Shown here in pieces: positions 9,001-53,521 of a DNA stretch of 64,000 nucleotides. The notes beneath the pieces were generated by a model, which saw only the letters and a program-made list of their open reading frames with translations, searched no databases and was not told where the DNA came from. This DNA comes from a virus (taxonomy: Duplodnaviria > Heunggongvirae > Uroviricota > Caudoviricetes). The stretch's first letter is position 1. Every line of letters begins with the position of its first letter. Position numbers and translations under genes: made by a program. The stretch is from IMG/VR virus record IMGVR_UViG_3300001528_000136, positions 58,906-122,905 of that record; one strand, given 5' to 3'.

Positions 9001-10075
9001 TATAAAAGGTGATGGTACTATAGATTTTTCTCCTTATAAAGATGGAAATTTTAAATACTTTTTACACTCACAAGTAAATGAACAATCTACTTTATATTCT
9101 CTTGAAGAAAATTAGTTCTTTTTAAATATTGTATATATAAATAATGGTTATGCTTCTGACTAGAAACGATTTGGTTTTTCACAAGGAGATAGAAGTTGGA
9201 ACACTCAATGCTTTACGAAAGATGCTTAGGTATCTAAATATGATTTTAATAATTAGGTCATGGCTTAGCTGGGATTTATGAGCAATAAAGGTATCTATCT
9301 TTTAAATGATTATATAATGATGCCTTCTTCAAGTAATGAAACCATATATAAATGTACTTCAAATCTGGCGAGATATTTAGCTAGCTTATTGGCAGATTCT
9401 TATATTCTTAGTACATCTAATGGAACAATAAGTGTAAATACCTTATTAGAATTTATACATTATAATTATAATACATAGTTTACATAGGATGTGGTGTTTA
9501 AAGCTTCTGTAGCATCTGTTAATGATACCTTAAATATACATGGAATATAGTATAAAGAATATTTAAGTAAAATCTTGACTAATTTAGAATCAACGACTTT
9601 AAAAGATACAGATACTAATGTAAAAATAGAATACAATTCAATAACAAAGAATATTCCTATTTAGTTATCAATTAGTTCTATAGCCCCTATTTAGTAGAAT
9701 ACTTCTAATTACATTTGGAACTCAGTCTCTAATAATGAAGATGTTGTAACTTCCGATGTAGGATATAATTAGATATATTATATATCTAAAGACAGATAGT
9801 TATTACCAATTGCAGATAATTAGATATTTTCCATATTTAAATTTAATACTATAAACGGAATTACTGGTACTAAAGAAAACTACGATTTAGCTCAACTATA
9901 TACAGCATTTTCTTATAATAATGGCTTACAAATTAAACCTAGTTCTACTACTTATAGTCAAGTAGGAGGAACAGTACATGGAGTTACCTTGGATAATCCC
10001 GTACTAAGAGAATTACCTTTAGACAGTAAAGTATTTAAATCTAGTAATGCCGATTTCTATCATGTCAAGTTTTAA
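6023..10075 (+). CDS. Large tail protein, tail-stabilisation-protein-like N-terminus (1350 aa, TAG=Gln)
   Basis: Track fragments 7556, 8639 and 9278 share this frame. I read most of it and found only TAG interruptions. N-terminus ..MDLAPDNTQATCLTNALNATLVTMNGNELSLQNDMGNGRVE..SQIGCFPSPERN is typical of crAss tail proteins. Confidence 0.7.
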
Positions 10076-28800: not shown

Positions 28801-31800
28801 GCTGAAACAAATCCTGTAACACTTGCAGCATTACAGGGTGAGTCCAATGACATAATAACTGGAGCAGTAGTTAATAATGTTAATGCTTTAATAGACCCTG
28901 TTATAAAATAGGGATATATTAACCCAGAAGTTAGAAAAGCTTTGCTAGAAAGCCTTGGTAAATTAAAAACCCTCAATTCTGACCGTACTACTAGGTTGCA
29001 AAGTAAGATTGAAAAATCTGATATAGCAGGAATGAAAAAACTCAATAAGTAGATGGTTGAAAACAGAAAGCAAATTGAGAATTTACAGGAACAAATAGAG
29101 AATTTACCAACAACACCTGCCCTTGAATTTATAGATAAGTTTAAAATAGGAGCCACTAACTCATAGTTAAATTTCTCAGAACATTGGAAACAAACTATAG
29201 ATAAACTCGCAGATAATAAAAGTGACTTATCTGAGTTTAGTACAGATGATGTGTGGGAAGCTAATAATCAAGAAGCCATTCGATTAGTTAAAGCATTTAG
29301 AGCGGTGCTTGAAGGAATGAAAGTAGATAATGCTGATTTAGGTAATCCTACGGGATATTCTAAAATGCTTAACTTAGTATATTAGAAATCAGCATAGAAA
29401 AACTACGTTCCATTAGCTGAAATAAGTACATAGGAAGCTAATATGATGCTTGAAGATGTTAGTTAGATTCTAGCTAGATTAGAGTTTGCTGACACTTTAA
29501 CTAAGATGAATAGAGGTCAAAAGCTTAAAGAACAAAATAAAGTTGCAGCCAGAAAGAATTAGTTAGTATACAATGGAACTAAAAGACTTATTGATACTTT
29601 ATCTGATTCAGATTGGAAAGATGATAGTATTACTAATTTAAAAAATACATTTAATAATATTACTACAGATGTTAAAGAAGCTTTAGAAAGTGATAATGTT
29701 AAACAAAGTAAGGAGATTAGGGCTGCTGTAGAAAAATATATGATGTAGTTAGATAATGCTATTTATGATTTCTTTCAAGCTAATAAAGATTCTAAGGGTG
29801 AAATAAGTACTGAAAAAATAGGTAAGTTATTAAAGAAATTTGCAGGTGATGCAGGATTCTTTTAGAAAACTAACGCTATACTTAATGAATCTACTAAATC
29901 TCTAAGTGATAATTCTTACATTTGGTATTTAGCTTCTAGAGCAGCCGTAAAAGCCTCTGACTTTTATGGTTCATACAAGAAAGCAGTAAATGACAAAGTA
30001 GCACCAATAGCTAGTTAGGAATTAGCTACCTATCTTGGAGTTGCAGCTATAGCTAATATGAATATGCTTAATAAATTTGTAGATGCTTATAGAAATACTG
30101 TAATCCAAAACTTTAATAAATTATCTGAAAAAGAGAGAACTGATTTATTAAAGTAGTTTGACGGAAGTGGAGAAGCTTATTCTAAAGATTTATTAAAATA
30201 TTTTGGAGCACACGATGTTCTTCCACAATATAAGAATGTAATATTTATTGAAGGTATTGCAGGAAGTGGTAAGAGTAAAGCGGTGTTTAGAAACGTAATT
30301 AACACTATAAATAATATTGACCCAGATTATTTAAAGAACGCTTATTATGTGCATGAGACAGCTGATTCTGCATAGAAAGCAGCAGAGGATTTGGAATTAA
30401 AAGGTTAGACATTTGGTAGGGTCGATTTCTTAAAACACTTATCTCCAGAGTGGAAGGATATTAGAGATAATAATAAAGATGGTAAGAATTATTTATATAA
30501 AGGCTCATTTAAGTTTGACCCAATTACAGGTAAATTAGAGAATACCTGGAAATTAAATAAAATAGCAGATGTCCCAAAGGTTATATTTATAGATGAGGTA
30601 TCCCACTACAATTAGCAAGAAATGAGTATGATAGAACAATGGGCTAAAGAACATGGAACTATTGTACTTACTGCCGGAGACTTTGATTAGGATACTTCTA
30701 TTGCTTTTACTGATGAAATTAAATATAAAGGAGACCCAATAAGTGTTACATTAAATAGAAATAATTTTATTAGAAGTCCTAAGCTAGGTGTATCATTACG
30801 TACTTTAAACAAGCAAATGACTTATTGTACTAAAATGATACAAGCTGCTATTTAGAGACTTAATGAGGGTAAGGGTGATATAGACTTAACATTTAACTAC
30901 TTAGACAATGATTCTGACCATTTAGGACTATTTGGAGTTAAGATAGCCACACCTAATAATCTAGCTAAAGGTCTCGATAAAGCAGAACTTGAACGTATTA
31001 TCCCTACTATTGATTTAATGGTTTCTACATCAGGTGATGAGAAAATAGGATATATTTATCATAGTACTGATACAGAATTATATAAGTTATTAACTACTAA
31101 ATATAAAGATAAGATAGTAGCTTATAAAGATTCAGATGCACAAGGTCTTGAGGGCAAGTATTACATAATAGAGAACAACATCAATCCTAACGTATCTGAT
31201 TCTGTTTTATTAAGGTCTTTGTATACAGGTATAACTAGAGCTTCTTAGGGTGTACTAGCTATAACTCCTGGTACTACTAAGAATATTAAGTCAGTGGGAA
31301 TGTAGCAGGATAATAAATTCTAGTTAGAAACTATTGGACCAGAAGCTATTAAACATGCTTCAAAAGAGAGGCTAGAGTAGTTAGAAGATATGGTAGATGA
31401 GGATGATGGAATATCTAAGTTAGAATCACCAAAAAATACTCCAACACCTGCCAAAGCTCCTGCATCAGGCGGATTACCTCCTGTTCCCCCTCCAGCTAAT
31501 ACTCCTACAGTAAGTACTAAAACTAGTTAGGCAGATGCTGATATAGAAGTAGAAAAATTTAAACAACTTATATATAATCCTGATGGTACTACTAATTCTA
31601 TAGCTAAAAAGTTAGACTAGGAGTTTGATATAATGGGTGTGGAAGCCAAAGAAGATAGTGGTAATTGGATTCCTACTGTTAATTTAAAAAATGGTGATGA
31701 TGAATTTAGTATCCCATTAACTGAATTTAATAAGGAGTATACTCTATAGAAGAAGGATGATAAGTCTACTATTCCTATCTATAATGTAGGGCAATCATTT

Positions 31801-34794
31801 ATAATTAATGATGGAACTTCTGACAAGCATATAACTGTGGATGAGATTTTATCAGGAGACCCTTTGACATACAAAGTATTTGACAAAGATGGTAATACAT
31901 TTGAAATAACACAGGAAGACTTACAGAGATAGTACAAAGGAGAAATCCCAGAAGAACCTGTTATTCCAGAAACTAATACAGTAACCACTGGAATGGAAAA
32001 CGCTTCAACAGAAGAATACGAAGCCGCTATTACATAGTCTAATACGGAGGAGACTACAGAAACTCCTAAATAGGTAGATACTTTATACAGTATGAATACT
32101 TATTTACCAGGAATGAAAAATGATAATGGTAAAGCAGTATTTGATGATGATTCTCCAGAAGGTCAAGCTCGATATAATGCTCGTATAGATGGATTTATAG
32201 GATTATCTAAGTTACTGGGAACTGACGATTGGAATACCTTGGATAGAAACTTTGCATATTGTAGAAATGCTTTATTTGCTAATGACAACAATTCTAAATT
32301 GGCTAAGGATTTAGCTTATGTACTTAATTTAAAAGGTGATGTTAATATTAGGTATGCTTTAAAGAGTTCTGCAGGTAGATATGATTCTAAAGACTCTCGT
32401 TACTATAGATATGACTAGGGAGAAAATGAGGAATGCAGTTATTTACATTCTGATGATGAATCTGCTAAATAGGCTCCTAGAAAGAAAGTAGTAGCTTTGA
32501 TATTTAATGATGGTAAACCTGTTTTAGAAATACCTATAGTTTCACTTAATTCTCCTATATCATTAGTATTCTATACAGATGGAGAAGGTAATTTACTACA
32601 TCCAGAATTAAATAAAGCTTATACAGAAGCACTGAATAAATATAGTGGCGAAAAGAATTAGAGTGATTTAGCAGTACAGGAGGTAATTAACTAGTTTGAT
32701 AAAAGTGGTATAGACTAGGATATAATTGATTTGTTTAAGGTGTATAGATTTACTGGAAATGGTATTTTCTTTTTTGATAAATCATTTAATTTAGCTAAAT
32801 AGTCTCCTACAGGTATTTTACTTACTGGCGAAAAAGGTAATCTACAACAAAATGGTTAGTTTTAGACTTCTAACTAGTTTATAGACTTATCAGAATTAGC
32901 ACAGAATCCTCAGTTTAGAATATCTAGTGTTATGACTTCTAGAGATGGTTTAGTTAATGGCATACATGCAGTAAATCCAGGTCATTCATTTATACTTGTT
33001 GGAAATTCTAATGAGTTTACTAATACAGATGATTTAGTTAAATAGTATGAGAAACAAATTTCTGACAAAAATGAACCTAAGAAAGTATCATTATACTATG
33101 TAATGCCTCCTAAAACTACAGTATCTAAGTGGCTTGATAATTAGCATAATTTATATTTAAATACCTTGGGTTAGAACAAATAGGTGTATAATATAGGTAA
33201 TGATTTTACAGGATATAGAGTTTTAGATTGTCTAGATAAAGCAGGAGTATTAGATTCTATTTAGTCTATTGGAAGTACTGCATAGGGATATAAATCAGGA
33301 TAGGATGTCTTAAATTCTGTTAAAGATATACTAAATAATGTCCGAAATATTGAAAATAAGTGGAGAGGAGAATTAGCTTTAGATAACTCTAACTAGATAG
33401 AAGGAAGAGGAGAGGAAGAGTATTATTAGTTATTAATTAACTAGGGAATGACTGAGCAGGATGCTCGAAGAGTAATGTCTATTAAAGAGATTAATTAGTA
33501 TCTTAAATAGCCTAGTTAGTTAATGTTCTAGGAAGGTCGTACAAATAATTAGGTACTTAATGCTTATTTAACTTGTATGATTTGGAACAGAACAAAAGCA
33601 CCTGGTCAAGCAGAAGTGATTACTTATCATCCTGAAATTAAAGACCAAATAGAGCAAGTATGTAATACTGCGGAAGAGCCTTTAACTGACGTATTTTACA
33701 AAACTCAATATACAGATAAGACACATGGTTCATTTATAGAGATATAGTAGCAAGATAATTGGTAGTTAGAAGGAATAGATGGCGATTCTGCATTTAGAAT
33801 CAATGCACGTATTGACACTACCAATTTTGTATCTGATGAACTTCCTATATCTAGAATAACCAATGAAATAGAACAACATACCTTTAACAGTAATGGCAAA
33901 TAGGTAACTGTATGGGGAATGACTGCTGATGCAAAATAGAGGTATGAATCAGTTTATTTGGATTAGAAGAAACTGGAAACTAAGCCAGACCCTATTGAAG
34001 AGTATGCTCCATATATGAATAGAATTGGTATATCAGAAACAGAACTGGCTAATATTGTATCTAGAGGAGACAAAACTCCTATACAGCAAGGAATAGTAGA
34101 ATGGTTTAATAGTAAAGATTCTCATAATTTCGGTTTTATATATAATGGAAATGTTTACTTATTTAATAATGGCGAATACAAATTAACTTCTAGACCAACT
34201 TCTCTAAATAATACTGATAATTTGACACTAGAAGGAGTAGATGGAAATGGAACTCACCCTATTACTATCACTTTTGAAGTAGATGGAAATGGTAATATTA
34301 CATCTATGTAGGGCAATGTAACTAATTTCACACAAGTAAATGTGGAATCTGCTGGAATCTCCATTTCAGAAGATGAATGGACTAAAGCTCAAGAGGGCAT
34401 TAGGGATTCTATTCCACCCCTACTAGCTAAAAATAGTGCATTTTTAAGAGACTACAGTAAATCCATATCTGCACAAGGTAAGAGGGATTTAAAACGTAGC
34501 CTTGGAACTGCTAAAAAGCTTTTAGCATAGGCAAGAAAGAAGAAAAATCAAACTTAGGAAGAGGCATGGGATAAAATGATTTCATATATAGAATCCTTAA
34601 CTTCTGAAACTAATCCTTCTATCTCACTAGAGGATGGTGATACAGTTATTCAAAATGGTGAAAGATATACTATAGTTAATAAAGAAACATTATTAGCAGA
34701 AAAAGAAGACACTGGAGAACCAGTGAATTTAACTACAGATAATTTGATTAAGGAGGAAACCTAGTGTATTCCTATTAAATTTAAAATGATTTAA
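25873..34794 (+). CDS. Giant virion cargo protein with internal superfamily-1 helicase domain (2973 aa, TAG=Gln)
   Basis: Seven track fragments share this frame. Walker A IEGIAGSGKS (30247-30276), Walker B VIFIDEV (30580-30600), motif III GDFDQ (30676-30690), motif V AQGLE and motif VI YTGITRA (about 31138-31245). Confidence 0.75.
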
Positions 34795-34795
34795 A

Positions 34796-37700
34796 ATGGC
34801 AAAATGTTCACTTAAAAAATCACCTAATGGGGCTTTTGGTGGCTATAGTTAGGAATCTATCGAAGAATTAGAAGACTTTGCTACCACAGCTTTTAATGAA
34901 TCTCTTATGAATGCAGGAGATGGTTCAAATGGAGGCTTAATTAAAAAAGCTGTAAGAGAAGCACTTCATAAAATTGGTGACTAGTATTCTATGAATTAGT
35001 TAGATAAGGTAGCTGAAATTACATAGAACTTACTTGATAATTCTGAAGATTTAGTATTTTTAAATGATTATTTACCTATTGAAGGTATTAAGAATGCTAT
35101 AAATCCTAAATATAGATAGGCAACAAAGGAAAATCCTTCTCTTCTGGGAGAACCGGAGGAGGGGGAAACCCTTTCTAAGAAATCTCAATTCTTAGATGAT
35201 GTATGGGGTACAAATGTAAGATTAAAAAATGCTTATAAACAAGAAGTAACTAATTAGCTTATTAATAAATTTATAATTGATAGAGAACATGGTAAGATTG
35301 TAAAAAATGCTTTAGAAGCTAATTAGAACATCAGAGACTATAAAAACTAGTTATGGTCTGATATTAAACAATACCTAATAGATAGGGGTCTTATAGATGA
35401 ATATACTCCAGATATTTATGAGGATGGAGAATACACAAATGTCTTTGAAGACGAGGAAGTTAAAAAGGCTCTCAAAATATTTGGTTCTTGGGATGCTTAG
35501 AAGATTTAGTTAAACAGAGATACAGAAGACTATAAAATCTTTAAAAAGTGGTTTACATTAAAGAACTTTGATAACTTTACTAAAATGTTACTTGGTAAAG
35601 CTGTTATAATTAAACCAGGTACAGAAAATGTATTTAGTAATGAAGATAACTATTCTTTTGCAACTAAAAATGATGCTGTTATAACTAGTTGGAGAACTAG
35701 CGATGATGTAGTTCTTGAATAGGAGATTGGTGCTTTAGCTTAGTCTTTAATTAATTCTACTCCTTATTATCAATACAAAAATGATGCTGAGACTGGATAG
35801 TATATAAAGTTCTCAGATTTCTACTAGATAATGACTAAACTAAAAGAAGCAGTTTACAATCCAGAAACTTCTAATGTGGTATTTGATAGATTAGGTAGTA
35901 ATTTTAGACAATTATCTGAATCTGGATTACTTACACAACAAGAACTAAATATTATTGAGGGAAAATCTTTAAAAGATATAATTTGTAACATTAGAGAAAA
36001 TCCAGCTCTTTATAGTAAATTGTTATTTACTTCTATAATTAACGATGAGGCAACTTTACGTAAACTTAAATTTACAGACGAAGATTTAAATAAGCTATAT
36101 TCTTTATATAAAGGAATATTTGCTCCTGATGGAAACTCTATTTAGGCTATTCAAGCAAAAGAAGATTATAGAGCTTAGAATTATTATAATTTACTTACTC
36201 AAGTAGTTGATTCTATTAATTCAGTTTAGTTCCTATAGTATAATATTAAAGATGGAGTAGTAGAAACAAGACTTTTAAAAGATTATTCTGCTGAAAATGT
36301 TAGAAAGTCCATAGAGAATAATATAGCTTATACTAATTCTTCACATATCATATCATCGCTGTTTAAAGAGAGAGAATCTAAATTATATAAAATACACGAG
36401 ATAGCTAATTAGGCAGGTAATTTCTCAGGTATTACCTATGACATTCCAGGTACAGGAATAACTGTAAAAGTAGATGAACTTGGAAATGCTATTACCTACA
36501 GAGATAAATCTGGTAAATTATTATCTATCAATGAAATAGAAGGTATAATTAATGACCCCTAGACATCTGAGTCATTATGGCAATTAATTGATGATAATTT
36601 AGCAATTGGAGTATCTTATGATACTGACCTTAGAAAAGCTATTCAAATGTATACCAAGGGAAGAACTGTAATAGATTTAATGAACTTAACTTCTAATGTT
36701 CTTCTTAATAAGTATATTGCAAATGTAAAAGGTGAAAATAGTCATGGTAGAGCATAGTTAAATGCCTTATTTGAAAATATATATTAGGGATATAAAAATA
36801 AACCTACCTATAATTCTGAATTAATGGAGATGGGTTTATATGGAAACAATATGACCCCAATTCTTGATAATATAGCTAAAGCTAAAGCTCTTACTTCTGG
36901 AATTATGTAGTCTGCAATGGTTAAAGATGCAGATGGTAAGACTCTTTCTCAATAGACTCTCAGTCGTTTACTCGGCAATCTAATTCCTCAATATAACTGG
37001 ATTAAATCTTATAACTGGGTAAGTAATAGAAAAACCAATCCATTTGAAAAAATGTCTTTAATGTAGCCAGGAGTATTTAAAGGTATTTATACTACTAGAG
37101 AAGTTAAATCTCCTTATGGAAACAAAGCTTAGACACAGTTTACAGTAGCCGAGTTTAGTTAGAGTGCCTTTTTATATGATTTTGTAGATGGATTTACAAA
37201 GAAATCTGATGTAAGAGGTGATAGAGTAATTGGAAATGGAAAAGTTGGATTATTGCCATCTGTAAACTCTGATAAAAACACAATTAATAGAATGTGTATT
37301 GATTTAATGTAGAAAGTTATTTCAGAGCATCCAGATATTAATGGTAAATAGTTTATAGACCTTACATCCAAAGAAATACAATCATTAACTAGTGAGTAGT
37401 TAGGACATTATTTTAAAGCAGTTAATTAGAATGTTCAACAAGATTTCAACAAATTATTTAATTGGATAAGAACAAAAAAAGGTTTAAGTATTTGGAGTTT
37501 AGAAGACATTAATTAGCAATATAGTAATCCATCTGACTAGTTATATCATTGGGTAAAAGAGTATAATGACACCCATAACGATAATATTTAGTTAATTGAC
37601 TAGACTCATTATACAGTTGATAAAGTCACTAAAAAACTAAAACCTAATATGTTATTAAGAGGTTTGGAATCTAGATTTTCTGACCCTAGTAAACTAGCTA

Positions 37701-40700
37701 AGTTTATGAAGTGGAAAGAAACTGAAGTTCTTAAATCTCTACTTGATGATAATGTTGAGATAAGATTAGTAGATGGTACTAATTCTTCTGCAAAGACTTA
37801 TTTAAAAGACAATTATGGAGACTGGGTTCATAATGGTAAAATGGTGTTTGCTAAAATTAATGGTCACAATATATTAACTAAATAGGATATAACTAGACTT
37901 GGTTTAGATATGAATGACCCACACTCTTGGAATATAGAGTTACATCCCATGCTTAGTAAATATAATGCACTTGATTATTTATTTACCTCTTAGTATATGT
38001 ATGCAGGTGTGGGATGTCATACTAATCACCCTTCTAAAGCTAAATATGATGTCCCTGTAATCTATACTGGAACTACTGTAGGGGAAGGATTAGCACAATC
38101 GTATAATTATTACACTTAGAGAATAGGACAATCTTACGAAGATGCAAAACGTATTGCACAATGGAATAACCAGATATTAATAGTAACTAACGAACAAGAT
38201 GCCATTAAACATGCGGCTGAAATCTCTTAGGTAATAGATGATGGAAGTATTAATTAGGACATATTTAAAAACCCTGTTTTAAATAGTCGTAGGATTACTG
38301 ATACATCTAAGTTAGAGTCTCTGGAAGACAAGTTACTTCAAAATGAAACAGAGGACGAAGCTTCTAGATTTGCAGCATAGCATAAAAGAAATGTATCTTA
38401 CACAGCTGCAATGCATGAATTTTAGTTAAACTAGCTAGATGGTATTCCATCAATATATAATATGGCTATTATGTCAGATTTAAAGTCTGATGTATATACA
38501 GTATAGGCAGATGTAGATAAAGCTACTAACTTTGATGGTGCTACATTTGTAAATCCATTTATAGTTATTTGGGAAAACAATTCACTGAATGGTGATAAAG
38601 CTGGTTTAAATAAAAAGTAGTTTGTACATTTTTATGATAGAGCTACGGGAACAGGAGGTATCATTAAAACTGCAGGATTTGGTTTAACTAATGATAAAAT
38701 TAGATAGTATGATTTCTATCGAAATATGATGCACAATATGACTCAAAGACAATGGAAAAATGCTGATGGAACTCAATATATTATGAGAGAAGGAGGTATT
38801 CTAAAAGACTTTGAGGGAAATGATATTGATTATGGAGATTTCTATTATAGAAAAGGAGCTAAATTCTATAAGAGACGTATATAGTCTTACGATGGTAATA
38901 ATACCTATTCTATATTAGAATAGCAGGTTGATGAAAACGGTGAAGCTAAAGGAGAAGAAAAGACTATTTAGGTAACTACTAAGTCTAACTATGACGTATG
39001 GTAGATGTTCGGAGGTATGAACTCAGTAGACTTTTTAGATGGAACTCTATAGGGTTCAGAAAAGTCTATAGAAATGACTGCACATGCTGCTAATATATAT
39101 GGAATTAAAAAGGATGGAGTAGTTAGAGCGTAGACTGCAGAGGATGTAATCCAACCAATGAAACATTCAGACATTCATTATATGCCTACTATAGGAGCAG
39201 TTAAACATGGTGCTGCTAATATAAATCCTGTATCATCATTCTTCAATAAAAATGGACTTAGCTTTATGTAGGTTGAAATGAGACAAGCAGGGATTCAGTT
39301 GGATAAGGAGCATTAGGCAGATAATGAAGATTTATCTCTTATGACCTAGGTTATATCTGCAGCTTGTTCAATGGGTTATACCAAAATGCAAGCTACAAAC
39401 TTATATAATGCTCTATATAGTTTAACTAAGTAGGCTACTAAATCCTTTAGAGATGAAATGGGAGACCTCCTAGAAGGATTTACTCCAGAGTTTGATGCGG
39501 CTGTTACAGAGACTATTATGAAAGCTTTAGTTAATGCTTCTGCAACTGATGGGGATATGCTCTAGTTAGTAGCTAAAAATATTATTAAAAAAATCAATGC
39601 AGAAAAGTAGTTCTCAGTAAATAAAGAAAATTATGCTAGCATTGATGGTGAAATTCCTTATAGTGATGCTGCCGTATCTGCTAAGGTAGTAAGTTCACTT
39701 ACTTCATCTTTAACTAAAGCAGGTATTAAAACTAAAATGCCTGGACTTCTTGCAGTGCTAAATCCTGCAGAAGGAATTATTAAAATGTATAAAGTTCCAG
39801 CAAAAGATAAGGATGGTAATATATTAGTTAAAGAAGATGGTTCTACTATTTATAAGTATGTAACTATGGATGCTATTGAAAGAGAGTATGATACTGAAAA
39901 TGCTCTTGAAATAATGCAATAGTTATAGAATGAAACTCAACCAATTAGTTATAATACTGATGAAACAGGACTAATAACTAGTATGCCTGATGTTAAAATA
40001 GGACACAAATATTTAGTAGCCTTCGCAGATGGTTCTTAGAGAGTAGTAAGTGTAACATTACCACACCGAACTGAATCTAAAGTAGATACTGTATTTTATA
40101 ATGGAACTCCATATCAAGAATAGACTATGGGATATAGAAAGCTTATAGACTATTTAAATGGAGTAGTTGATGAAAATACAGGAGAAACAAGTCAAATTAC
40201 AGAAGTTAAAGAATTTTTACTAGGTGGTCAAGACCTTGATAGTTATGATGTGAAATTCTAGGATTCTTTAGGTAATAAATGGCAAATGTCTGATTTAGAT
40301 ATTGTTTAGGACTATTTTGAAGCTAGAGAATCTGAAGACCCACGAAATAAAGTATTAGAAATTCTATCTAAGTATGACAAGAATGAGGATTTAAAAAGAG
40401 AGTTAATTAAAGTATTTAATTAGTCATCTAATGGAAATAAAGTACAAATAGTTAATGCTCTAGCTAATGACTTTAATGGAACATTCCTAACTGATGCTCC
40501 AATGTACAAAGAGTTCTTTTAGAACTATGCTCTGAAATTCTTAAATAGAGAAATGTAGAAATAGTTGGCGGCTTTAAATCCTGAAAATACAGAACCTTTA
40601 AATGTATTAATTAATGGTAAAATAGTTACAGTATAGCCTTCTACTATTGATATAACTAGTTATGGTACAGTAATACCTAAAACTGCTGCGTCTGCATTTG

Positions 40701-41584
40701 GACTTAACTAGTATGATTAGGTTAGTGATATAGTTAATAATCCAGATTTCTTCCTAGATAGATTAGCTAAGAAACTTAATACTAAGGTTCAAGACTATTA
40801 TAAGGATGATTAGTTAGTTAATAATTTTCATTTAGAACTAAAACGAAATGACGGTAATCATATTTATATAAGAAGGGGCTTAGATGGTTCAGACTTTGCT
40901 AATGAAGTGTAGTGGTTTAAGTATATTGATAACGACGGCAAGGTCTTCAGAGTGGATAGTGATGGTAATATTATGCATCCTATGTATAGTAAAGATGATA
41001 AAATATTCACTGATTATGATGGAAACGAAGTAATAGTTACAGAGGCTAAGGATACTTGGAAAGATTCTTAGGGTAATATAGTTGAGAATCCAGATATAAA
41101 GGAAGTTAATGGAATAACTATAGATTAGAAAACAGGAGAATAGATACATATTGAATCTCCTTTTACTTTCTATCTAGACAATCTCAATTATAACTTTCTA
41201 AATATAAGTGCAAATTGTTCGGAAGCTGAGGTCCTTAATTTACTAGATGCTGCTAAGAATAGTAAATCCAAGAAAGCTAATAATTTTGCCAAAAGATTAA
41301 TTAAATTAGGTAATTATGATAAATAGATAGATTACTTAGAGTAGCTTATTAACTTCGAGAAACTAATTAAAGGAGATACCAAGAATCCAGCATATTTAGC
41401 TTTACAAAAAGAATCAAGATAGATATGGACTTCTTTTATGAAGTATCTTGAAAATGTAGCCGCTCGTATTCCTGCTTAGTCTTAGCAATCCTTTATGCCT
41501 CAGGCAACTGCTATGTTTGAGAATACAGATACTAATAATGCTTACGTAAGTAAATTTTAGTTCTTCTTGTAGGGAAGTGACCTT
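34796..41584 (+). CDS. Virion RNA polymerase (two-barrel, crAss-like), exon 1 of 2 (2263 codons, TAG=Gln)
   Basis: Starts MAKCSLKK. Track fragments 35831, 37649 and 39737 are in frame. Contains DGATFVNP, KAGIKTKMPGLLAVLNP and ARIPAQSQQSFM. Ends ..FFLQGSDL, the first half of the DxDxD catalytic loop. Confidence 0.8.
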
Positions 41585-41763
41585 AAACAATATTGAGGTC
41601 GTTAAATCTTGTGAATTGCGGGAAATGCCTTAGAGTTTAACATACTAAATTAATAAAGTGATTTATTAATGGCTAGAAGTAACTAATCTAGGTATAGTAA
41701 CAAATGTTAAAATTGGTTAATCCGCAACTAAAAATCTTTTATATAACTTTAATAAAATCAGAC

Positions 41764-41792
41764 TTGTCAATTGATGCAAAATTGAATATAGT
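41764..41792 (+). promoter_or_regulatory. Candidate intron-internal promoter for the endonuclease, TTGTCA-N17-TATAGT
   Basis: Sits in the loop and 3' arm of a perfect 15-bp stem (41734-41748 with 41790-41804), about 90 nt upstream of the endonuclease ATG. Confidence 0.45.
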
Positions 41793-41882
41793 TATATAAA
41801 AGATGAAAGCTCATCGACTATCCGAAAGGAGTAGGGATGAACTCTCATTAAAACAAATTATTAATGCTAAATAAAGTTTTAT

Positions 41883-42587
41883 ATGAGAAAAATTAGTAAA
41901 AAATTAAATTTAAATCAAAAAAGATTATTACTTGGTATGCTAATTGGAGATGGTACTATAACTAATCATCCTGATTATAAAATAGACCATTCTACTCCTC
42001 AATTAGAATACTTAAAATGGAAATTAAAATTGTTAAATGAAGCTGGTATTAAAAATACTGGATTAAAACTTTATAAAAGTTCCGCAGGATATAATAAAGG
42101 CAAAGATGTATATAGAGTAAGAGTATCTACAAATATGACTATAAAAGCAATACGTAGGAGTGTATATATACAAAAGAAAACTATAACTAAAAAATGGTTA
42201 GATTGGTTTACTCCCAGAGAAATTGCTATATGGTTCATGGATGATGGTTCTGTAAACGTAAATACTTCTAAACAACGTAGTTCTATAAAACATACTGTAT
42301 TAATAGCAACCTGTGTTGACAAATTAACTGCTAAAATGATAACAAAATATTTTAAGGAAAAATGGAATATTCAGTTTAGAGTATTTCCAGAACAAGGACA
42401 AAAAACCTTAACATATTCAATAGCTACAACTTCAGAAGAAGAATGTAGAAAATTTAATAATTTAGTTTATCCATATGTAAAAGAGGTTCCAAGCTTATTA
42501 TATAAGTTAAGAAATAATTTTACTAAAGAAGAATTTAAGAATTTACAAAAAGAAAATCCCGAAGTGCAAGACTTATTATTTTTATAA
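41883..42587 (+). CDS. LAGLIDADG homing endonuclease (two-motif, LAGLIDADG_2-like), intron-encoded (234 aa)
   Basis: Motifs LLLGMLIGDGTI and IAIWFMDDGSV, plus HSTPQLEYLKWK. Lies between the 5' and 3' strands of P7. No TAG codons. Confidence 0.9.
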   Translation: MRKISKKLNLNQKRLLLGMLIGDGTITNHPDYKIDHSTPQLEYLKWKLKLLNEAGIKNTGLKLYKSSAGYNKGKDVYRVRVSTNMTIKAIRRSVYIQKKTITKKWLDWFTPREIAIWFMDDGSVNVNTSKQRSSIKHTVLIATCVDKLTAKMITKYFKEKWNIQFRVFPEQGQKTLTYSIATTSEEECRKFNNLVYPYVKEVPSLLYKLRNNFTKEEFKNLQKENPEVQDLLFL

Positions 42588-42633
42588 TAAGAAGATATAG
42601 TCAACCTATATATGAAAATATATAGATTAAGTG

Positions 42634-45600
42634 GATATTGATGCAGTATCTATACAAACATTTGAAATAAATCGTAATGGTTTATATGAATCGTACTCTC
42701 CATATACTAGTTTGGATTCTCCTGAACTTTTAAGAGCTTCAGAAAAATATTTACCTTTTCCTACAGGAGAAAAAATGTTCCCAGATCCTGTTTACAATCC
42801 ATCTGAAACTACCATGCATGAGTTAATTGCTAAGTAGCATAATAATGGTAATAAAATATTTGGATTAGCACATAAACTTAATTAGTAGGATGCTCTGTTT
42901 TTAATAGACTTTGATAAAAAAGGCAACGTATCAGTTGAAGTAAATACTAGTAATGAACAGAATATAAAAGATTTAGCTGATATTATTAAGTAGGCTAATA
43001 AAGAAAATTTTGACGTTCTTGACGGTGATGATATACTAAATACTAGAGCTTTAGCATCTCTATTATCAGCTGATGGTAATATTGTATTAACTACAGATAT
43101 TTATAATAATATTGAAGGTGAAATAATTAAAGCTATCAATAGGCATAATTTATATTTGAAAACAAATTCTAAGGCTAAGAATGATAGAATTTTAAAGAAT
43201 TTTGCAGTAACTTCATTATTAAATATTATTAAAAACCCTATAAATTTGAGAGAGGCTTAGTCATCTGTAGATGTTATGACCTCTACAGCTAAGGGTTTAA
43301 CCAAGGCATCTCCTAAGAATGCTGTATAGAAAACATTTACTCCTGGTAACGTATTCAATAAAATATAGAGTATTAATGAAAATATGGTTGGAAAAGACGG
43401 TATTGCCATTTGTGCTACAGGTCTTAAATCATTTTTTGCGCTAACTCATATGTATAATACAATACTAAATGACGGAAATGTAAGTAATGAAGAGAAATCA
43501 GCTTTAATGTGTAATGTACCTATTGGCGGCAAAGTTTACAAAGGATTAGCTAACGTAAATGTTAATTAGAATATAATAGAAAGTTTGGTAGTAGCCGAGA
43601 ATGGCAATTTTGTTCCTTTACAAGAATATTTACTGTCTCAAGAGTGGGAATCTGACGCAGCCAATGAAGCATCTGCTTTCTTATCGTTAAGTACTGATAA
43701 TGCGAAGGAGTTAGCCCTCGCCAAATTAAATGCAGGAACATAGACACTTGGTATGTATCTTTATGGATTATCTTTAGGTGTTCCAGTATAGACTTTGTTC
43801 AAAGTTATGACTTCGCCATTTGCATTTAGATTAGTTGAGTTAGCTAAAGGTGATATATTTAATGGTAACTAGGGTTGTAGAACTGTTATTAAGGCTTTAA
43901 ATTATTTACACAAAGATCCTGAGGAGTAGTTAGCAAGATACAATACATTTGATTTAACTAATTATAATAAGGGAAAATCTCCAGAAAAAAGAATATTAGG
44001 TCCTGCAGACTTTGCTTGGAAAGTTTTAAAAGATAATTTAATGGATGAATCTTATGAAGAGAGGCAACCATTCCTCAGATAGTTAGCACATAGAAGTAAT
44101 GCCATTGAAGCTATTGAATCTCTACGAAACAAAGTTAATTAGATAAATAATATTATCTAGACTAAGAATGAATTTGACTTATATTCCACATTATATAACT
44201 AGGCATTAGATTTTATGGAGCAATATATTGATGATGTATAGTTAGAATTAAATAGTGGTACTTATGATACTGTTTATGGTAAAGCTGTAGTAGCAACTGA
44301 CCTTGAGACATTAGCATTAGGTGCAGAAGAATATAAAGCAATTGGACAGATATTAAGACTTAATTAGGAAGTAAAAACAAATGCTTTAGACCTTCAAAAA
44401 TAGGTATCTAATATAGAAGAGTTAATACCTAGAAGACTTTAGTAGATAGGATAGGCTTTGAATAGAGGAAGTTAGCAAAGTAGACTTGGCATATAGGTAA
44501 CATAGGATGAGATAAAGAAACCAGATAACTATAAAATTGATATATAGAGATTCTTGTATGATGAAATATATCAGAGAGAGAAAATAGAGTAGTATGATAG
44601 AATTAAACAATCTTATAATCCATTACGTATCTTAGTTACAGACCCTCAATATAGAGGTTATGTAGAAACCATGTACATAGCTCATCAAGGTTTATAGAAC
44701 AAATAGTTAAAGTATAAATTTACAATAAGCAAGATTGCTGATTTTATCTAGAAAAATAAAGTTTCAAATAATCTACAATAGCAGGTTCTTAAAAATGGTA
44801 ATAATTATGTTGACTATAAGCTAAGATAGAATTGGATGAGAGATAGTAATATGTAGATTACTATTCCAGGTAGTACTGAAAAGACTAAAACTTATGCTTT
44901 TATAGGAGATTTAAATAATTATAAATAGTTATACTTTGATAAAACTATCTAGTTAGGAACTGACATGGGTGATGCAAATTTTAAATTATGGATGGAAAGA
45001 ACTCTTATCCCAAAACTTAAAGCTGACCCTACTTTAAAAGACAATATATTTATACAACATTTAAGTCCTATAGTTAATTCTAGAACTAACTTAGGTATGA
45101 CTTCAGTTTATTACGGACTGAATGGGATAAATATGTTACCGTAGTCTGATACTGAAAGAGAAATGTTTGACATTCATAAAGATGCCTTTAATTAGTTAGC
45201 TTCTTATGACCTTATTACAGATGCTAAAGGTAAGAGTATGGCAGTAAAAGACTTATTCTATTTATACTCTTTAATATGTAATAATGGTAAGTTTGGTCCT
45301 ACATCTTTGCATAAAATATTTGAAGATTATTTGGATTCAGGTATTGCTTAGAGTTACAAACACTTTATAGCAGCTAAGGATAAGGATATTGATTTTTATC
45401 AGAAGTTGGTAGATGAATGCACTGATGAATGGCTTGCTCCTACAAGTTCTCCTTATGTAGGTGGTTCTAAAGTTCTTAAATACAAAGACTTAAATAGTGA
45501 ACAGATGTTGCTTTATAAGAAGAATAAGAGATAGTCTCGTTCTGATGAAGATTATTATGCTGATTATGATTTTATGAATGAAATGGGATTTGACCCAGAA

Positions 45601-45966
45601 TATGAGACAGATCATATGGCAAAAATTAATGGCTATGTTAAATAGGAATCTTCTGCATTATCTAAAAGAGATTATAGTTTCTTTTCAAATCCTGAAATTA
45701 GTTATGAAGGAGGTAGTCTACAAATGATGCCAGCTACTTTAGAATTAACTAAATAGTATCCTATAAAGTATGAAATCAGAAACAACAAACCAGTTCTAGT
45801 AGAGATAGGCGGAAATAAAGAAATTACAGATAAGTTTATGAAGTTAATGAAAGACCGTAAAGGTGTATTACCTACTAAATAGATTTTAGGAAATAATGGA
45901 TTTACTACTGTAATTAATGAAGAATAGATTGAATCAGAATTAAATAGTATAATAAATTGTGGCTAA
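42634..45966 (+). CDS. Virion RNA polymerase, exon 2 (1110 aa; spliced protein 3373 aa, TAG=Gln)
   Basis: Begins DIDAVS. Track fragments 42631 and 43384 are in frame (VGKDGIAICATGLKSFFALT; SAFLSLSTDNAKELALAKLNAG follows). Ends ..NSIINCG TAA. Confidence 0.8.
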
Positions 45967-47014
45967 TTGTTTAATTAAAGATTTGGAGTATCGGACTAAG
46001 TTATCTTAGTCTGGTATTCCAGAATCTATATTTTATCCATTTTGTAATGGATTTATGAGTAAATATGGAAGATTACCTAATCTTGATGAAATTCCTAATG
46101 TAGATTCTACTTAGCATATAACTAATAAACTTCATCTAGATAGTAATAATTCAACATCTATAGATAATATTATGTCTTCTACTAATACTGACAGTATTGA
46201 AAAAGCAAATGCAAGTTTAAATGATACTTATAAAGATAAAGATATAAATATAATCCCATTATATAAAGAAGCCTTAGTTAATATAAAATCTAGACCTTCT
46301 GAATATAAATTTATAGAATAGGAAAAACATAGAGTAGATAAAAATCCTAATATGTAGAGTGTATTTAATTAGTTATTTGACAAGTTAAATAAACAGTATG
46401 GGGTATAGATGCACACAATTTCTGATAAGGAATTAACTAAAGAAGAATGGCAAGGTATTCCAGAAATCCAGACAGCTAATGCCTTTATTTATAATGGTGA
46501 AGTATATATAAATACAGACCATGCAAAAGCTGATGCTCCTATACATGAAATGACCCATATGTTACTAGGTTCAATAAGATTTAAAAACCCTGACCTTTAT
46601 TATGGAATTGTTTAGTAGGCTTAGAATTTTCCAACATTTAACTAGTTTATAGAACAGAATCCAAATAGAGCTATGAATGACAATATGGAAGAACTTTTTG
46701 TAACAGAAATGTCTAAGTATCTAGCAGGAGGAACTAGTGTTATTGAACAACTAGATTAGTCTGTAGTCAATGAACTTCATTACAATATGAAAAGATTACT
46801 AGATACTGCTTTAATGGGTCAATATAGTGTAAAAAGTATTCCAGATTCTTAGTTATATAAAATGTCATTGTCTGATTTAGCAGACACAGTAAATTCAGCA
46901 ATGTTAGAATCCAATTTCTATGGAAGTTTAGATGATGCTTCTTTACATAGACTATTAGCTAATACCAAATCAGATTTAATGAAGAATGGTGATTTAAGAG
47001 AAGATTGTGTATGA
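45959..47014 (+). CDS. Zincin-like metallopeptidase cargo protein (351 aa, TAG=Gln)
   Basis: The GTG start overlaps the RNAP end (MANCLIKD). Contains NAFIYNGEVYINTDHAKADAPIHEMTHMLL (HExxH) and a downstream MEELFV as candidate third ligand. The TGA overlaps the next ATG. Confidence 0.7.
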
Positions 47015-50000
47015 AATGTAATTATAGTTATAAAGGAAAACAATTTGATTCTATTTAGTAGCTAGATGATTTCTTATTAGAGAAACAAATCTATGAAAGT
47101 AAATATGGAGATTTAGTGTTTTCTATGACAGAAAAGTAGCTATCTGCCTAGAATAGAATTGATAGTATTAATAAAGAATCTGAGGAACTAAATAAGAAAT
47201 ATGCAGAAGCTAAAAGAAATGCTTCATTCATTGATTCAGAAGAAATATTAAAAATGACTAGACCTTATGTAGGTGTAAGTGAGTTTCTAATGGATTAGAG
47301 GAATGATGAAGGAAATCTGTGGCTTCCAACATTCACTACTGAATATTGGGCTAAACAATATTTAAATTGGAGTTAGGGAATTTATTCAGATGATGAGAAA
47401 GAAGCTTTTTTTGATAATGATGATTCTAAAGTATAGCCAGTAGAACTTGGTAATTAGGGAGATTGGCGTAAATCTGATGGTTCCTTAAAGGATAATTTTG
47501 GTACAGATGAGCAAAATAACTTTCGAAAGATAATGGAAGATAAGTGGAAACATCAAGCTAAGTACGGTGATGATATTCATGCTATTATGTAGAGTTATTT
47601 TGCTAGGGTAGGAGTAGATTCTGATGGAAATCCTAAATATCGCTATGAGCTTTGGGAAGGTAAACAAGGGGCTATGTAGTTAGCTAAGAGTGTTAAGTAC
47701 ATGAGAAGTAAGGGTATTATTTCTGATGAAATGACTGACGATAAAATCAAAGGAATACTTGAAATAGCTAAAAATCTTAGATCCTAGTTATAGTCACAAT
47801 ATGGTGAAAAGTGTGTTTATTATCCTGAAATAACAGTAAGTGCTAAACTGAACCATGAGTATGAAGGTAGGGATGATTTAAGTGTTTTAGGTCGTCTTGA
47901 TTTATTAGTAATTGATGAGAATGGTATTCCTCATATTATGGATTATAAAACTTCTCCAAAGGATTATGACCATTTTGCAGAAGCCAAAAAACTTACATTT
48001 ACTTATTAGCTAAGTACTTATGAAAGAATGTTAAGAAGACATGGTTTTAATACTACAGCTACAAGTTTAAGCATTATACCTTTAAAACTAGATAACTTTC
48101 ATAAAGAAGGAGATAAGTGGACTTATGATAAAGTAGTTCCTGGAGGTAATTTACTAGAATCTATAACTGACAGAGCTAACAAAGATTACATAGCTAATAA
48201 TCTTGATGAATATATTGAAGCCCCTTTGTTACTAGATGGAGACTCTAGTCAGATTACTGAGAATGTAACTAATTTAATGAAGACTTGTTTCCCAGAACAT
48301 GGTAATGTTGCTACTGATGAGTAGATAAAGAAAATGATTGATGGTCAAGGTGGTTTTAAAGAAAATAAAGAAGCTGGAACTCTGGAATTTAAACCAAAAG
48401 GATGGACTAAAACAATCTCGGTAAAACAAAAAGAGGGGGCAGAGGCTGAATTATTTAATAAAGTAAAGAAATTCTTTACAGGTCAAAGAGAACGTAGTTT
48501 AAAAAGAACCCAAGAAATTAAAAGAGCTTTGAAATAGGCGTAGGCAGAGGATACTAGACAAATCTAGTTACCAAACTCAATGAGTGATTGGACTAAAACT
48601 CGATTATCTAAATATTGCAGTAAGTCATGGGAAGTAATGGAGGGTCATGCTTAGGATATAGCTGAATAGTTTGGTATGATATTCCTATATAATAAAGCAA
48701 ATGACCTTGTAGAAGTAGTAAAGATAAGCTCTGCTGATTTAGCATTTCAACACTCATGGGGTAAGGGTAGATAGAATATTATTGGAGCTAAAGAAGCTGA
48801 CTTGGGAGAAAACTCTAAATCAGATAGTTTGATTATTAAGGCAACTAATGGAAATATTGAATTGATGGAAGCCATGGCTGTTCTTAATAACATCCAATTT
48901 AATAAGTCTATCTAGTTAGGAAATATAAGTGTATTAAATCCAGTATTTGGGCAGGGTGCAGAAACTAACTCTAATAAAGAGTTATTATATAATTGGAGAA
49001 AGCTTAGGTAGTCATTTAATATAGAAGGAGAAGATTAGTTTAAATAGGATGGCAGTATTAAATTATTATCTCTCGCAGAGCGGGCATATTTAGAATATGC
49101 TGATATAATGGATAGAGTCAACGATAGATGGTAGGCTCAAGAGTTTAGTAAATTTAAACCAGCTATGACTGAATTATAGAGTTCCCTTGAGCCTAATAAT
49201 GTTGAGGAAAGTCTTGAAGCTCTTAACTAGTTAAAGACAAAGTTAGAAAGAGATTTTGGAATGAATAAAGATGTTCTAACTAGAGGTGAAAATAAAGGTA
49301 AGAGTATCTATTCAGAAATGTAGAACTATGACCAGCAATATACTAAGTAGATGTATCAAATGACTCTTAGAGCCATTGCAGAGCTTAGTGGATTTGATAT
49401 TAGATAGGAAACAAAAGCCCATAGTTCATTCTTAGATAGTTTAAATATTTTAGAGAATGGTATGTCGGGTAACATGATTGACAACCCGGGCAATTTTGGC
49501 AACAGATTACTTAATTAGGTAACTTAGCTAGCTCTAGATGGATACTAGAATACTAGAGATATGTCTATTAGAAGGCTTAATGAGTTATCTAACAAAGTGA
49601 GAGAATTAAAGAAAGCTGAGAATTATGGAGTTGTCAGTGAGTATGTAACTGGGAATCAAACATCATTATATAATGACATGACTTACTATGATAAAGATGG
49701 TGATTTTAGATTTAAAAATCCGTGGAAAGATACTTCACTTCCTGAACATAAAAGGGAGTTTTTAAAGTATGCACTTACTGAAATAGCTAAAAACAAACAT
49801 CCAGATTGGACTCCTGAGATTATTAAAGACAAAATAGAAGCAAATGACCCAGACTTTTTCCAAGTTCCTCTGATTAGGGCAAGTGCTGCTTCTAAAATTA
49901 ATGCAGATGGATGGTTAGGATGGCTAAAGAGTAAGTTAAGACCTTTAATTAGTAAAGATAATGGAGAAACATTTAAAGAACGTCTTAAAAATACATTAAA

Positions 50001-51855
50001 AGATGTGCAGTCTAAATACTTATCTGATGAAATTGACCAATAGCAGAGCATTGATGGTGAAATATTCAAAGCTATAAATACTATGGACTAGGGTAGTGGT
50101 CCTAATAGACTTGATTTGATCAAAAGATTATAGAGTAAACATGGATCTAACTGTTTTGAAACTGACGTTGAAAAGATTCTTGGTGCTCATATGATGGCTT
50201 ATGCTACTTAGTAGGCTATGGAAGATAGAATGCCTCTTATTAAAGCTGCCTATATATCACTTGCTGTAATGGGTAACAACTAGGGAGCGGATTATTCATC
50301 TGATGAAAAGTATATAAAAGAGTATGTATAGAATAAAATAAATAAGTTAGCTATAGATGACCCTTAGTTAAGACATCTAAGGGGACTTACAGGATTCTTA
50401 CAAAAGGGTGCTTCATGGATGGCTCTTGCATTTTCTCCACTTCAAATGACATATCAAAGTCTTGAAGGTATTTGGAAAGCAGGTAAATTAGTTATAACTA
50501 GACCAGATGGAAAGGAAACATTTAGTTTTGGTAATATGAGAAAAGCTATGGGTATTGTCTATAGGGATTTATTTCATTATAGTGCAAAACCATCAGTTAT
50601 AGAAGGGTGTAATGCTCTTTACGGAATAAACGATATGGATGCAGCTTCCTTTGCTCAAAACAATAGTACAAATAAGCACGGATTGTTCAACTTCTTTGAT
50701 AGAATAGCTTACCATTGGTCTTCTAGACCTGATTTCTATAATAGAATGTCTATATTTACCGCACAAATGTTAGCAGATGGTAGCTATGATGCACATTCTA
50801 TAGATAAAAATGGAAATTTAGTTTATGATATTAAAAAGGATAAAAGGTTTGAGGCTTTATTTAATAAACCTAAAGGTTCTGAAGGGTATAACAAGGCTAA
50901 AGCTTTATTTTTAGCAACCGCATAGTAGCTAGTTAGAGAAAATGCTAGAAATGTCGATGGAACACTATACACAATAGATTTGGATAAACCAAATTTACCT
51001 AAAGCCTATTCTAATAAGGAATCCGAGGCTATGAAAGCTATTGGTGACACTATGTATGGTTACTATGATAGTTCCAAGAAGTCTTTGTGGTAGTCAACTT
51101 TTCTAGGAGGTTTAATGATGCAAATGTAGACATATTGGTCAGGTAAGAAAAATCAATATCTTGCTCCAGGTGGCATTAAAGCATAGGGTAAATGGGTATA
51201 GATGACAAGTCCAAATGGTAAAAAATGCTTTTATTCAGTAAATGAAAATGGAGATATTGATAACTCATCTATGCCTGTGGAAGAAGGTGACCCTAGAGCC
51301 AGTGAAATACCATTTATGTAGTGGAAAGGTAGATTTGAAGAGGGGGCATTTTTAACTTTATATGATGTAATTAAAAGAACTGTAGGTCATAAAGGTAATC
51401 TAAAAGAAGCTTGGAAAGAAAAATTAGATGGAGCAGATGAAGATTTATAGAAACTATATAAATAGAATATGAAATTAATAACTACAGATTTATTGGGTAT
51501 GTTATTAATAGGCTCTATTTTAGGAGGATTACTAGGAGGATTAGCTGATGACGAAATTAAGAATGCTAAGAAATCAGGACACATGGAAGATGCTATGGCA
51601 GCAACTGCACTCAATTTGATGGCAAAAACAGTTAAAAATTCAGCATTAGATTTTAATATGATAGATTCTTTATTTGGATTTGTTGGAGATTGGAATCCTT
51701 TTTCTATAAGTTATGCCACTAATTAGTTAAGTAATGGATGGAGTTTTCTTACAGGGGATAAGAACTGGGGGTAGACTCTTTGTAGTTCTTTTTCTGCAGC
51801 AAGACAAATGAGACCAGTCCTTAATTGTATTAACTAGTCTTTACAAGAAGATTAA
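47011..51855 (+). CDS. Large cargo protein with PD-(D/E)xK nuclease domain and C-terminal hydrophobic segment (1614 aa, TAG=Gln)
   Basis: Starts MKCNYSY. Contains GDDIH..YPEITV..GRLDLLVIDENGIPHIMDYKTS (47890-47955)..TYQLSTY. Five track fragments are in frame. LLGMLLIGSILGGLLGGL lies near the C-terminus. TAA 51853-51855. Confidence 0.75.
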
Positions 51856-53392: not shown

Positions 53393-53519
53393 AATACATA
53401 ATTAATGTAAATAAATTAAATAACGTTATTATTGTCCAAAAGACGGTTGAATTATTCCAAAATTTAATTAAGGAAGCCGCAACCATAATTAATAAGATAG
53501 TTATTAATAAAGCACACAT
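53376..53519 (-). CDS. Small membrane protein (47 aa)
   Basis: MCALLITILLIMVAASLIKFWNNSTVFWTIITLFNLFTLIMYYAKNG. Fills the gap between two track ORFs. Confidence 0.55.
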   Translation of the reverse strand: MCALLITILLIMVAASLIKFWNNSTVFWTIITLFNLFTLIMYYAKNG

Positions 53520-53521
53520 AA

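Follow-up and report, generated by a model that had tools for sequence, protein, structure and literature searches.

Crassviruses, the most abundant phages of the human gut, have to pass ~700 kDa or more of polymerase-associated protein through a channel that is too narrow for the proteins in folded form, which poses the question of how this cargo is delivered. The cargo locus considered here is in a 64,000-nucleotide (nt) stretch of viral DNA (positions 58,906 to 122,905 of IMG/VR record IMGVR_UViG_3300001528_000136), hereafter the window, which belongs to the genome of a giant, TAG=Gln-recoded, zeta-type crAss-like gut phage. Four consecutive late genes downstream of a muzzle gene encode a helicase-like protein (A), an RNA polymerase (RNAP; B), a putative zincin-like protease (C), and a PD-(D/E)XK nuclease (D). 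From their homology and synteny with the cargo proteins of phages phi14:2 and crAss001, which have been found in virions by mass spectrometry (10.1101/2020.03.07.982082; PMC10172136), the four proteins are most likely packed into the particle and injected. An earlier note on this DNA had proposed that a cysteine near the C terminus of each protein is bonded to one near the N terminus of the next. This head-to-tail C(i)-N(i+1) link is supported by the sequence comparisons presented here, and we consider it moderately likely that the terminal cysteines are dedicated linkage sites that tie the four cargo proteins end to end.

Cysteines at the facing termini of four consecutive cargo proteins

The junction-facing cysteines are located at residue −9 of A and residue 4 of B, at −2 of B and 4 of C, and at −2 of C and 3 of D (negative numbers are counted from the C terminus). 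All coordinates in the earlier note were correct when TAG was read as glutamine, and the junctions have the geometry that it described, with a 1-nt gap between A and B, an 8-nt overlap between B and C, and an ATGA overlap between C and D. The scarcity of cysteine that it reported was likewise borne out: there are 8 cysteines among 2,973 residues in A (0.27%), 12 among 3,373 in spliced B (0.36%), 3 among 351 in C (0.85%), and 9 among 1,614 in D (0.56%), compared with 2.49% for the early genes that the window also contains. If the first 6 or the last 10 residues are considered for each terminus and independence is assumed, the probability of finding a cysteine at all six junction-facing termini by chance is ~3e-9. 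The predicted chain of ~8,300 amino acids (aa) would come to 8,311 residues, because the spliced polymerase has 3,373 aa. The RNAP gene is not one open frame but is split by a 1,049-nt probable group I intron (41585-42633), which the earlier note had missed.

Conservation of the cysteine pairs in zeta-group relatives

Conservation and co-variation of the terminal cysteines among relatives had been set beforehand as the test on which the proposal turned, and the proposal passed it. A search with the protease returned 118 homologs, down to 34% identity, and every apparently full-length sequence among them starts with M-x(0-4)-C and ends in ..C or ..C-x, most having no other cysteine. Eighty viral contigs with 10-kb flanks yielded 49 distinct sequences for counts at the B/C and C/D junctions. 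All four cysteines of these two junctions are present in 49 of the 49, at protease identities down to 29%: a polymerase cysteine at −1 to −3, both terminal cysteines of the protease, and a nuclease that starts with M-x-C. These relatives span standard-code and TAG-recoded lineages with proteases of ~350 to 810 aa, they use both TGT and TGC at each junction cysteine site, and the position of the N-terminal cysteine ranges from 2 to 7. Twelve distant loci extend to the A/B junction, and the pair is present in all 12; there, the upstream protein ends in ..C-P-I-x-I-K-I-K-F (once in ..GTCS) and the polymerase starts with M-x-(K)-C.

The outer ends of the chain, namely the N terminus of the first protein and the C terminus of the last, carry no conserved cysteine. 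The cysteine near the C terminus of D, to which the earlier note had also drawn attention, is present in the window but is not part of the conserved rule; it occurs in 8 of the 49 relatives, which form the close clade of the window, while the other lineages have acidic tails without cysteine. In an alignment of 41 protease sequences, the invariant columns are C4, H196, E197, H200, E244, E245, and C350, and Cys3 of D is invariant in 30 aligned sequences. The cysteine of the MANC start that had been read for the protease was confirmed as Cys4; the first codon is GTG rather than ATG and is kept in close relatives, and more distant homologs start M-x-x-C with ATG. Conservation extends to the residues flanking the cysteines, with the motifs C-P-I-x-I-K-I-K-F for A, C-L-I/N-K-N-S-x-Y for C, and M-x-C-x-Y-x-Y-K-G for D, and an acidic residue often stands just before the C-terminal cysteine (..E-[DE]-C).

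The tail of A that follows its cysteine (34765-34794) is alternating hydrophobic, and in relatives its C-P-I-x-I-K-I-K-F form is kept into distant lineages. This tail resembles a single beta strand and may be a docking element.

Other families of Crassvirales and natural gene fusions

The same terminal-cysteine topology was found in five family-level groups of Crassvirales. In phi14:2, gp67 (1,797 aa) has one cysteine, which is its last residue, the RNAP gp66 (2,180 aa) has two, at 3 and −2, and gp65 (1,421 aa) has one, at 3, so that there are 4 cysteines in 5,398 residues and each is at a facing terminus. In crAss001, gp47 (2,341 aa) has one cysteine at −3, the RNAP gp50 has cysteines at 5 and −9 and one more inside, and gp49 (1,349 aa) has one at 5. 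Since crAss001 gp47 lies on the strand opposite to gp50 and gp49 and still has its C-terminal cysteine, with no gene following on that strand, the rule is independent of adjacency and of translational coupling. The coupling to which the earlier note had pointed is present at the three window junctions but is therefore not required. The pattern recurs in DAC15, cr126_1, IAS virus, and cr116_1.

Natural fusions identify the partners. In cr108_1, a single chain comprises the first and second proteins, with residues 77-236 and 1477-1599 matching crAss001 gp47 and residues 2361-2967 matching polymerases; the fused protein has only two cysteines (1534 and 2406), neither of them N-terminal or near the fusion point, and the remaining separate junction retains its pair (..NLCK / MANVC). 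The same first-second fusion occurs in five Suoliviridae (cr1_1, cr6_1, cr53_1, cr113_1, and cr115_1; 4,328-4,645 aa), the fused proteins of which have no cysteine at the N terminus or the fusion point and have one at −2 to −4, followed by a protein with a cysteine at 3-5; the 4,551-aa fused protein of cr1_1 has just two cysteines. The reciprocal fusion, of the polymerase with the downstream protein, is found in Intestiviridae cr8_1 (4,422 aa) and Crevaviridae cr127_1 (4,133 aa). There, ..ITCK or ..LKIC is the end of the upstream protein, while the fusion begins with MANNC or MNYC and has no C-terminal cysteine.

Each of the two reciprocal fusions thus lacks exactly the pair of the fused junction and retains the other, in agreement with the loss upon fusion that had been foreseen, which marks the C terminus of one protein and the N terminus of the next as the partners. 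The number of cysteine pairs equals the number of gene junctions, with three in the window, two in Steigviridae, and one in the fused forms. The sequences show a conserved pairing rule that does not depend on how the genes are arranged, and a pair that is missing wherever the two proteins are linked by a peptide bond. The pair counts and the fusion data, read from the sequences, argue against self-cyclization, independent anchoring, remnants of cleavage sites, and nucleotide-level signals.

The order of modules along the chain is not fixed. The nuclease module is found in the last protein in the window and in cr1_1 and in the first protein (gp47) in crAss001, and a profile of D matches both crAss001 gp47 (E 8e-11) and cr1_1 gp077 (E 9e-13). 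Because this module is shuffled along the chain, the linking rule is a property of the cargo set and not of one protein family. BLASTP of A to D against crAss001 gp44-gp50 found nothing beyond the nuclease module, a profile of the zeta protease had no significant match among the proteins of other families, and Pfam searches gave no matches for crAss001 gp47, gp49, and gp50 or for phi14:2 gp65 and gp67.

A proposed end-to-end linkage and its alternatives

We hypothesize that consecutive cargo proteins are joined by their cysteines, the near-C-terminal one of the first with the near-N-terminal one of the second (A-B, B-C, and C-D), turning four separately translated proteins into one linear thread of 8,311 residues. 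The bond would most likely be one inter-protein disulfide per junction, which is the simplest choice because there is one thiol per terminus and no conserved histidine or second cysteine nearby; it would form inside the particle, after exit from the reducing cytoplasm. Since each link lies no more than 10 residues from a chain end, the thread would be topologically almost a single polypeptide, which would explain the extreme positions of the cysteines, and in function it would correspond to the giant fusion proteins that other crassviruses have. With few other cysteines available, wrong cross-links would be prevented.

Such a thread would hold the cargo proteins in fixed proportion and may allow the set to be pulled through the narrow tail channel, in gene order, as a single strand that is partly unfolded. 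Reduction of the links in the host cytoplasm could then free the individual enzymes, much as happens in two-chain toxins. In crAss001, the capsid contains the polymerase-associated cargo, which cannot get past constrictions under 50 Å without partial unfolding, and the order of extrusion probably depends on packing and on the mutual interactions of the cargo proteins (PMC10172136). Whether the set behaves as a "virtual polyprotein," in which one terminal disulfide per junction sets the stoichiometry and exit order of the polymerase set and is opened by reduction in the host cytoplasm, and in which fusion and fission with gain of a cysteine pair are interchangeable, is in our estimation an even call. 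If true, it would explain why the giant cargo proteins are nearly cysteine free and why the boundaries of their genes can change, from fused to split or back, with function preserved. A conserved end-to-end tether would be a concrete and directly testable delivery mechanism.

A number of points weigh against the proposed linkage. The linkage is read from sequence, and the crAss001 study, which ran reduced and non-reduced virion samples, reported nothing on cargo cysteines (PMC10172136). Assembly in a reducing cytoplasm, in hosts of the anaerobic gut, bears on when a disulfide could form. Proof of virion packaging by mass spectrometry is limited to phi14:2 and crAss001, and for the four zeta-type proteins packaging is deduced. 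Unlike the phi14:2 proteins, A, B, and D hold 7 to 10 internal cysteines, and mispairing is possible. The rule also leaves unexplained the unpaired N-terminal cysteine of cr8_1 gp90 (1,182 aa; L126 26439-29987, minus strand), which starts with MTKKC and is preceded by a protein without a C-terminal cysteine. Finally, the sample outside the zeta group comprised ~15 genomes, was set by the content of the collection, and is not an exhaustive census.

The main chemical rival to a disulfide is a clasp in which a metal ion, such as zinc, is bound by both terminal cysteines of a pair. It would give the same chain topology by another chemistry, the data on pairing, conservation, and fusions hold for it as well, and it could arise in the reducing cytoplasm during assembly; the acidic residue that often precedes the C-terminal cysteine is also in keeping with it. 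However, each terminus has one cysteine, with no conserved histidine or second cysteine near any terminus, and a stable zinc site usually takes three or four ligands. We regard a metal clasp as unlikely.

A further explanation, which we judge improbable, is that each terminal cysteine acts alone, anchoring its protein to the portal, the capsid interior, or other cargo or being modified, and that the pairing is a by-product. The many disulfides between the structural proteins of crAss001 and the contacts of its cargo protein gp45 with the portal and tail rings (PMC10172136) lend this some plausibility. However, independent anchoring leaves unexplained why the outer chain ends are cysteine free, why N- and C-terminal cysteines occur in equal numbers, and why both cysteines of a pair are lacking at a fused junction when the other pair is retained, and the other cargo proteins offer few or no cysteines as partners.

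No less improbable, in our view, is noncovalent docking in which the cysteine is a well-packed contact, or a transient chemical role of the cysteine, for instance in cleavage or genuine peptide ligation. The conservation of the residues around the cysteines in A, C, and D suggests structured docking elements, and a putative zincin-like protease belongs to the set. However, an invariant cysteine in proteins that otherwise avoid cysteine points to thiol chemistry. As for ligation, cysteines 1 to 10 residues from the end leave no room for intein or ligase modules, no Hint domain was found in Pfam searches, and the N-terminal cysteine is at position 2 to 7 and is not the first residue, as ligation chemistry requires.

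Chance, a gene-calling artifact, or a nucleotide-level translational-coupling signal that happens to encode cysteine could draw on the tight coupling of the three window junctions and on TGT being AT-rich like the genome, but these are extremely improbable given the chance estimate from the window alone, the use of both TGT and TGC, junction geometries that differ between lineages, the C-terminal cysteine of crAss001 gp47, and the removal, by comparison with relatives, of the one artifact that was found (described below).

Several other identities were considered and rejected. N-to-C cyclization of single proteins does not fit the end proteins, which have one terminal cysteine only, and leftover polyprotein cleavage sites do not fit fused forms that lack the cysteines. 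A split intein or trans-splicing system was set aside because of the closeness of the cysteines to the chain ends and the lack of a Pfam Hint domain, and a zinc ribbon or CxxC site because of the single cysteine per terminus and the lack of a conserved histidine nearby. In a bacterial lipoprotein signal, the cysteine would be at ~15-25 rather than at 2-7, and no hydrophobic leader is present here.

Comparison with known systems

The RNAP cargo blocks of crAss001 and phi14:2 resemble that of the window in following the muzzle gene, in encoding giant proteins of which one carries a DxDxD motif, in containing a PD-(D/E)XK module and, putatively in the window, a zincin-like protease module, and in their terminal-cysteine topology. 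The window differs in that its block consists of four proteins with three junctions between them, the protease (351 aa) being encoded by a gene of its own and having a cysteine at both ends, and sequence similarity is almost nil, the nuclease module alone matching crAss001 gp47. The fused giants of other families (4,300-4,650 aa in Suoliviridae and 4,100-4,400 aa in Intestiviridae and Crevaviridae) contain the same modules in one polypeptide; there, a peptide bond joins the modules and the junction cysteines are absent, whereas the window has separate genes, with the junction cysteines in place.

Disulfides between different proteins of a crassvirus particle have been described. Cryo-electron microscopy of crAss001 showed inter-subunit disulfides in the tail hub, the ring proteins, and gp57 (PMC10172136). 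Like the bonds proposed here, those of the crAss001 tail and portal vertex join different proteins (PMC10172136), but they stabilize a static structure, whereas the proposed bonds would join mobile, ejected proteins end to end.

A parallel in working principle lies outside the phages. In diphtheria toxin and the clostridial neurotoxins, a single inter-chain disulfide holds the catalytic chain during unfolded passage through a channel, and cytosolic reduction releases it. The two-chain AB toxins and the proposed thread would share this working principle and have no homology; the chains of the toxins arise by cleavage of one precursor, whereas those of the window are separately translated proteins, several in series, in a virus particle. 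Among phages, the N4 virion RNA polymerase (vRNAP) with gp51 and gp52, T7 gp14-16, and P22 gp7, gp16, and gp20 are also packed in the capsid, leave through the tail before the DNA or together with it, and are poor in cysteine. The N4 proteins (vRNAP of 3,500 aa, gp51, and gp52; L127 12524-25524) have no terminal cysteine pairs but share the cysteine poverty of the window cargo, with zero cysteines in the set. Avoidance of cysteine therefore reaches the ejected proteins of another phage, while terminal pairs were seen in crassviruses only.

The cargo cysteines are unmentioned in the phi14:2 polymerase preprint (10.1101/2020.03.07.982082), the crAss001 atlas (PMC10172136), the Yutin 2021 survey (PMC7886860), and the 2025 zeta-group paper. 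The earlier note knew of no description of such a chain, and a full-text literature search on related terms likewise found no paper describing a terminal-cysteine rule. The rule and the fusion data together suggest that the cargo proteins are tied end to end in a manner not described before.

Genetic code and layout of the cargo block

The genome record is that of a complete virus of 186,905 bp with terminal repeats, and its size, recoding, and introns match the crAss-like zeta-group phages of Yutin et al. 2021 (PMC7886860). Under translation table 11 there are nearly no long frames on the plus strand from 1 to ~51.9 kb, and because the late-gene frames are shattered in this way, TAG must be read as Gln (TAG=Q), which yields a tight array of large late genes on the plus strand (1-51855). 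The early genes on the minus strand (52201-64000) are almost free of TAG, and recoding is thus confined to the late genes. The TAG positions of the protease align with Gln in standard-code homologs (e.g., ..KLSQSG.. versus ..KLAQSG..), and a tRNA with anticodon CUA is encoded outside the window, at C1:9028-9100 of the genome. In such recoded, intron-rich genomes, the terminal-cysteine rule is a practical annotation marker for true gene starts and ends. The features of the cargo block, of which the muzzle gene marks the start as it does in crAss001, with A to D following on the same strand, are listed in Table 1.

Table 1. Features of the cargo block, with window coordinates, and the terminal cysteines of the encoded proteins
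Feature	Coordinates	Strand	Size	Basis or description	Termini and cysteine codons
Muzzle (tail-tip gatekeeper) gene	10047..15965	+		Pfam crAss_MUZ PF25731, E 2.9e-23	
Protein between the muzzle and chain genes	19326..23999	+	1,557 aa	Start set by comparison with relatives	Cysteine free
Protein A, helicase-like P-loop, first link	25873..34794	+	2,973 aa	AAA_30 at residues 1452-1611, E 1.7e-6	No N-terminal cysteine; ends ..TQCIPIKFKMI, Cys2965 codon 34765-34767, 9 residues from end
RNA polymerase B, exon 1	34796..41584	+	2,263 codons	Ends ..LQGSDL inside catalytic motif	Starts MAKC, Cys4 codon 34805-34807
Probable group I intron in RNAP gene	41585..42633	+	1,049 nt	Splits catalytic GSDL/DID motif	
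LAGLIDADG homing endonuclease frame in intron	41883-42587	+		LAGLIDADG_2, E 1.1e-23; no TAG codon	
RNA polymerase B, exon 2	42634..45966	+	1,110 codons plus stop	Begins DIDAV	Ends ..IINCG, cysteine codon 45958-45960, second from end
Protein C, putative zincin-like metalloprotease	45959..47014	+	351 aa	Invariant HExxH residues	Starts with GTG, read V/M-ANC, Cys4 codon 45968-45970; ends ..REDCV, Cys350 codon 47006-47008
Protein D, PD-(D/E)XK nuclease, last link	47011..51855	+	1,614 aa	PDDEXK_1, E 1.5e-7	Starts MKC, Cys3 codon 47017-47019; ends ..LNCINQSLQED, cysteine codon 51826-51828, 9 residues from end

The 1,557-aa protein is possibly cargo as well, from its position. A mechanical open reading frame (ORF) beginning at 19284 (MYLDIC..) had suggested an additional chain link through Cys6, but this cysteine lies upstream of the true start and belongs to a spurious N-terminal extension, because relatives show a stop just upstream of MAE(T/Q)KKS. 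Directly after the muzzle gene, a 535-aa protein (15967-17574) has a single cysteine 11 residues from its end (..LIKECKKGG..), which is retained in relatives at 51-72% identity; no partner cysteine was identified for it.

Protein C had no Pfam or PHROGs matches. Its AlphaFold2 model (predicted local distance difference test score [pLDDT], 84) had no clear match in the PDB, and its fold matches to zinc peptidases were weak (Foldseek E no better than 0.08; VIA Z no higher than 4.3). Tenacibaculum phage Gundel_1 was tried as a relative and rejected, as it is not a crassvirus and its single 2,482-aa structural protein (L089 10068-17516) is cysteine free. A stretch of that protein is 28% identical over 146 aa to the window protease, and the neighboring gp72-75 are also cysteine free.

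A thioredoxin gene (PF00085, E 2.9e-21) is present in the early region of the genome, outside the window (C1:136354-136596), and cr108_1 and cr8_1 also carry one. Thioredoxin genes are common in phages, and their presence says nothing on the question of the cargo cysteines.

The RNA polymerase gene and its intron

Spliced B reads ..LQGSDLDIDAV.., which contains the DxDxD catalytic motif of two-barrel RNA polymerases. Pfam searches found no match in B; in a profile search, the motif and a segment ~200 aa downstream aligned collinearly, if weakly, with DAC15 gp076 (GFDFDID) and phi14:2 gp66 (DFDID). The gene is uninterrupted (..GSDLDIDAV..) in eight relatives (L001-L008) at 80-86% identity. The insert is a probable group I intron: the last base of exon 1 is T and that of the insert is G, as in group I introns, and the 3' end of the insert has a sub-threshold match to Rfam Intron_gpI (17 bits versus a gathering score of 50). 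Other lineages (L024, L071, L073, L083, cr108_1, and cr116_1) also have an insert at this RNAP motif.

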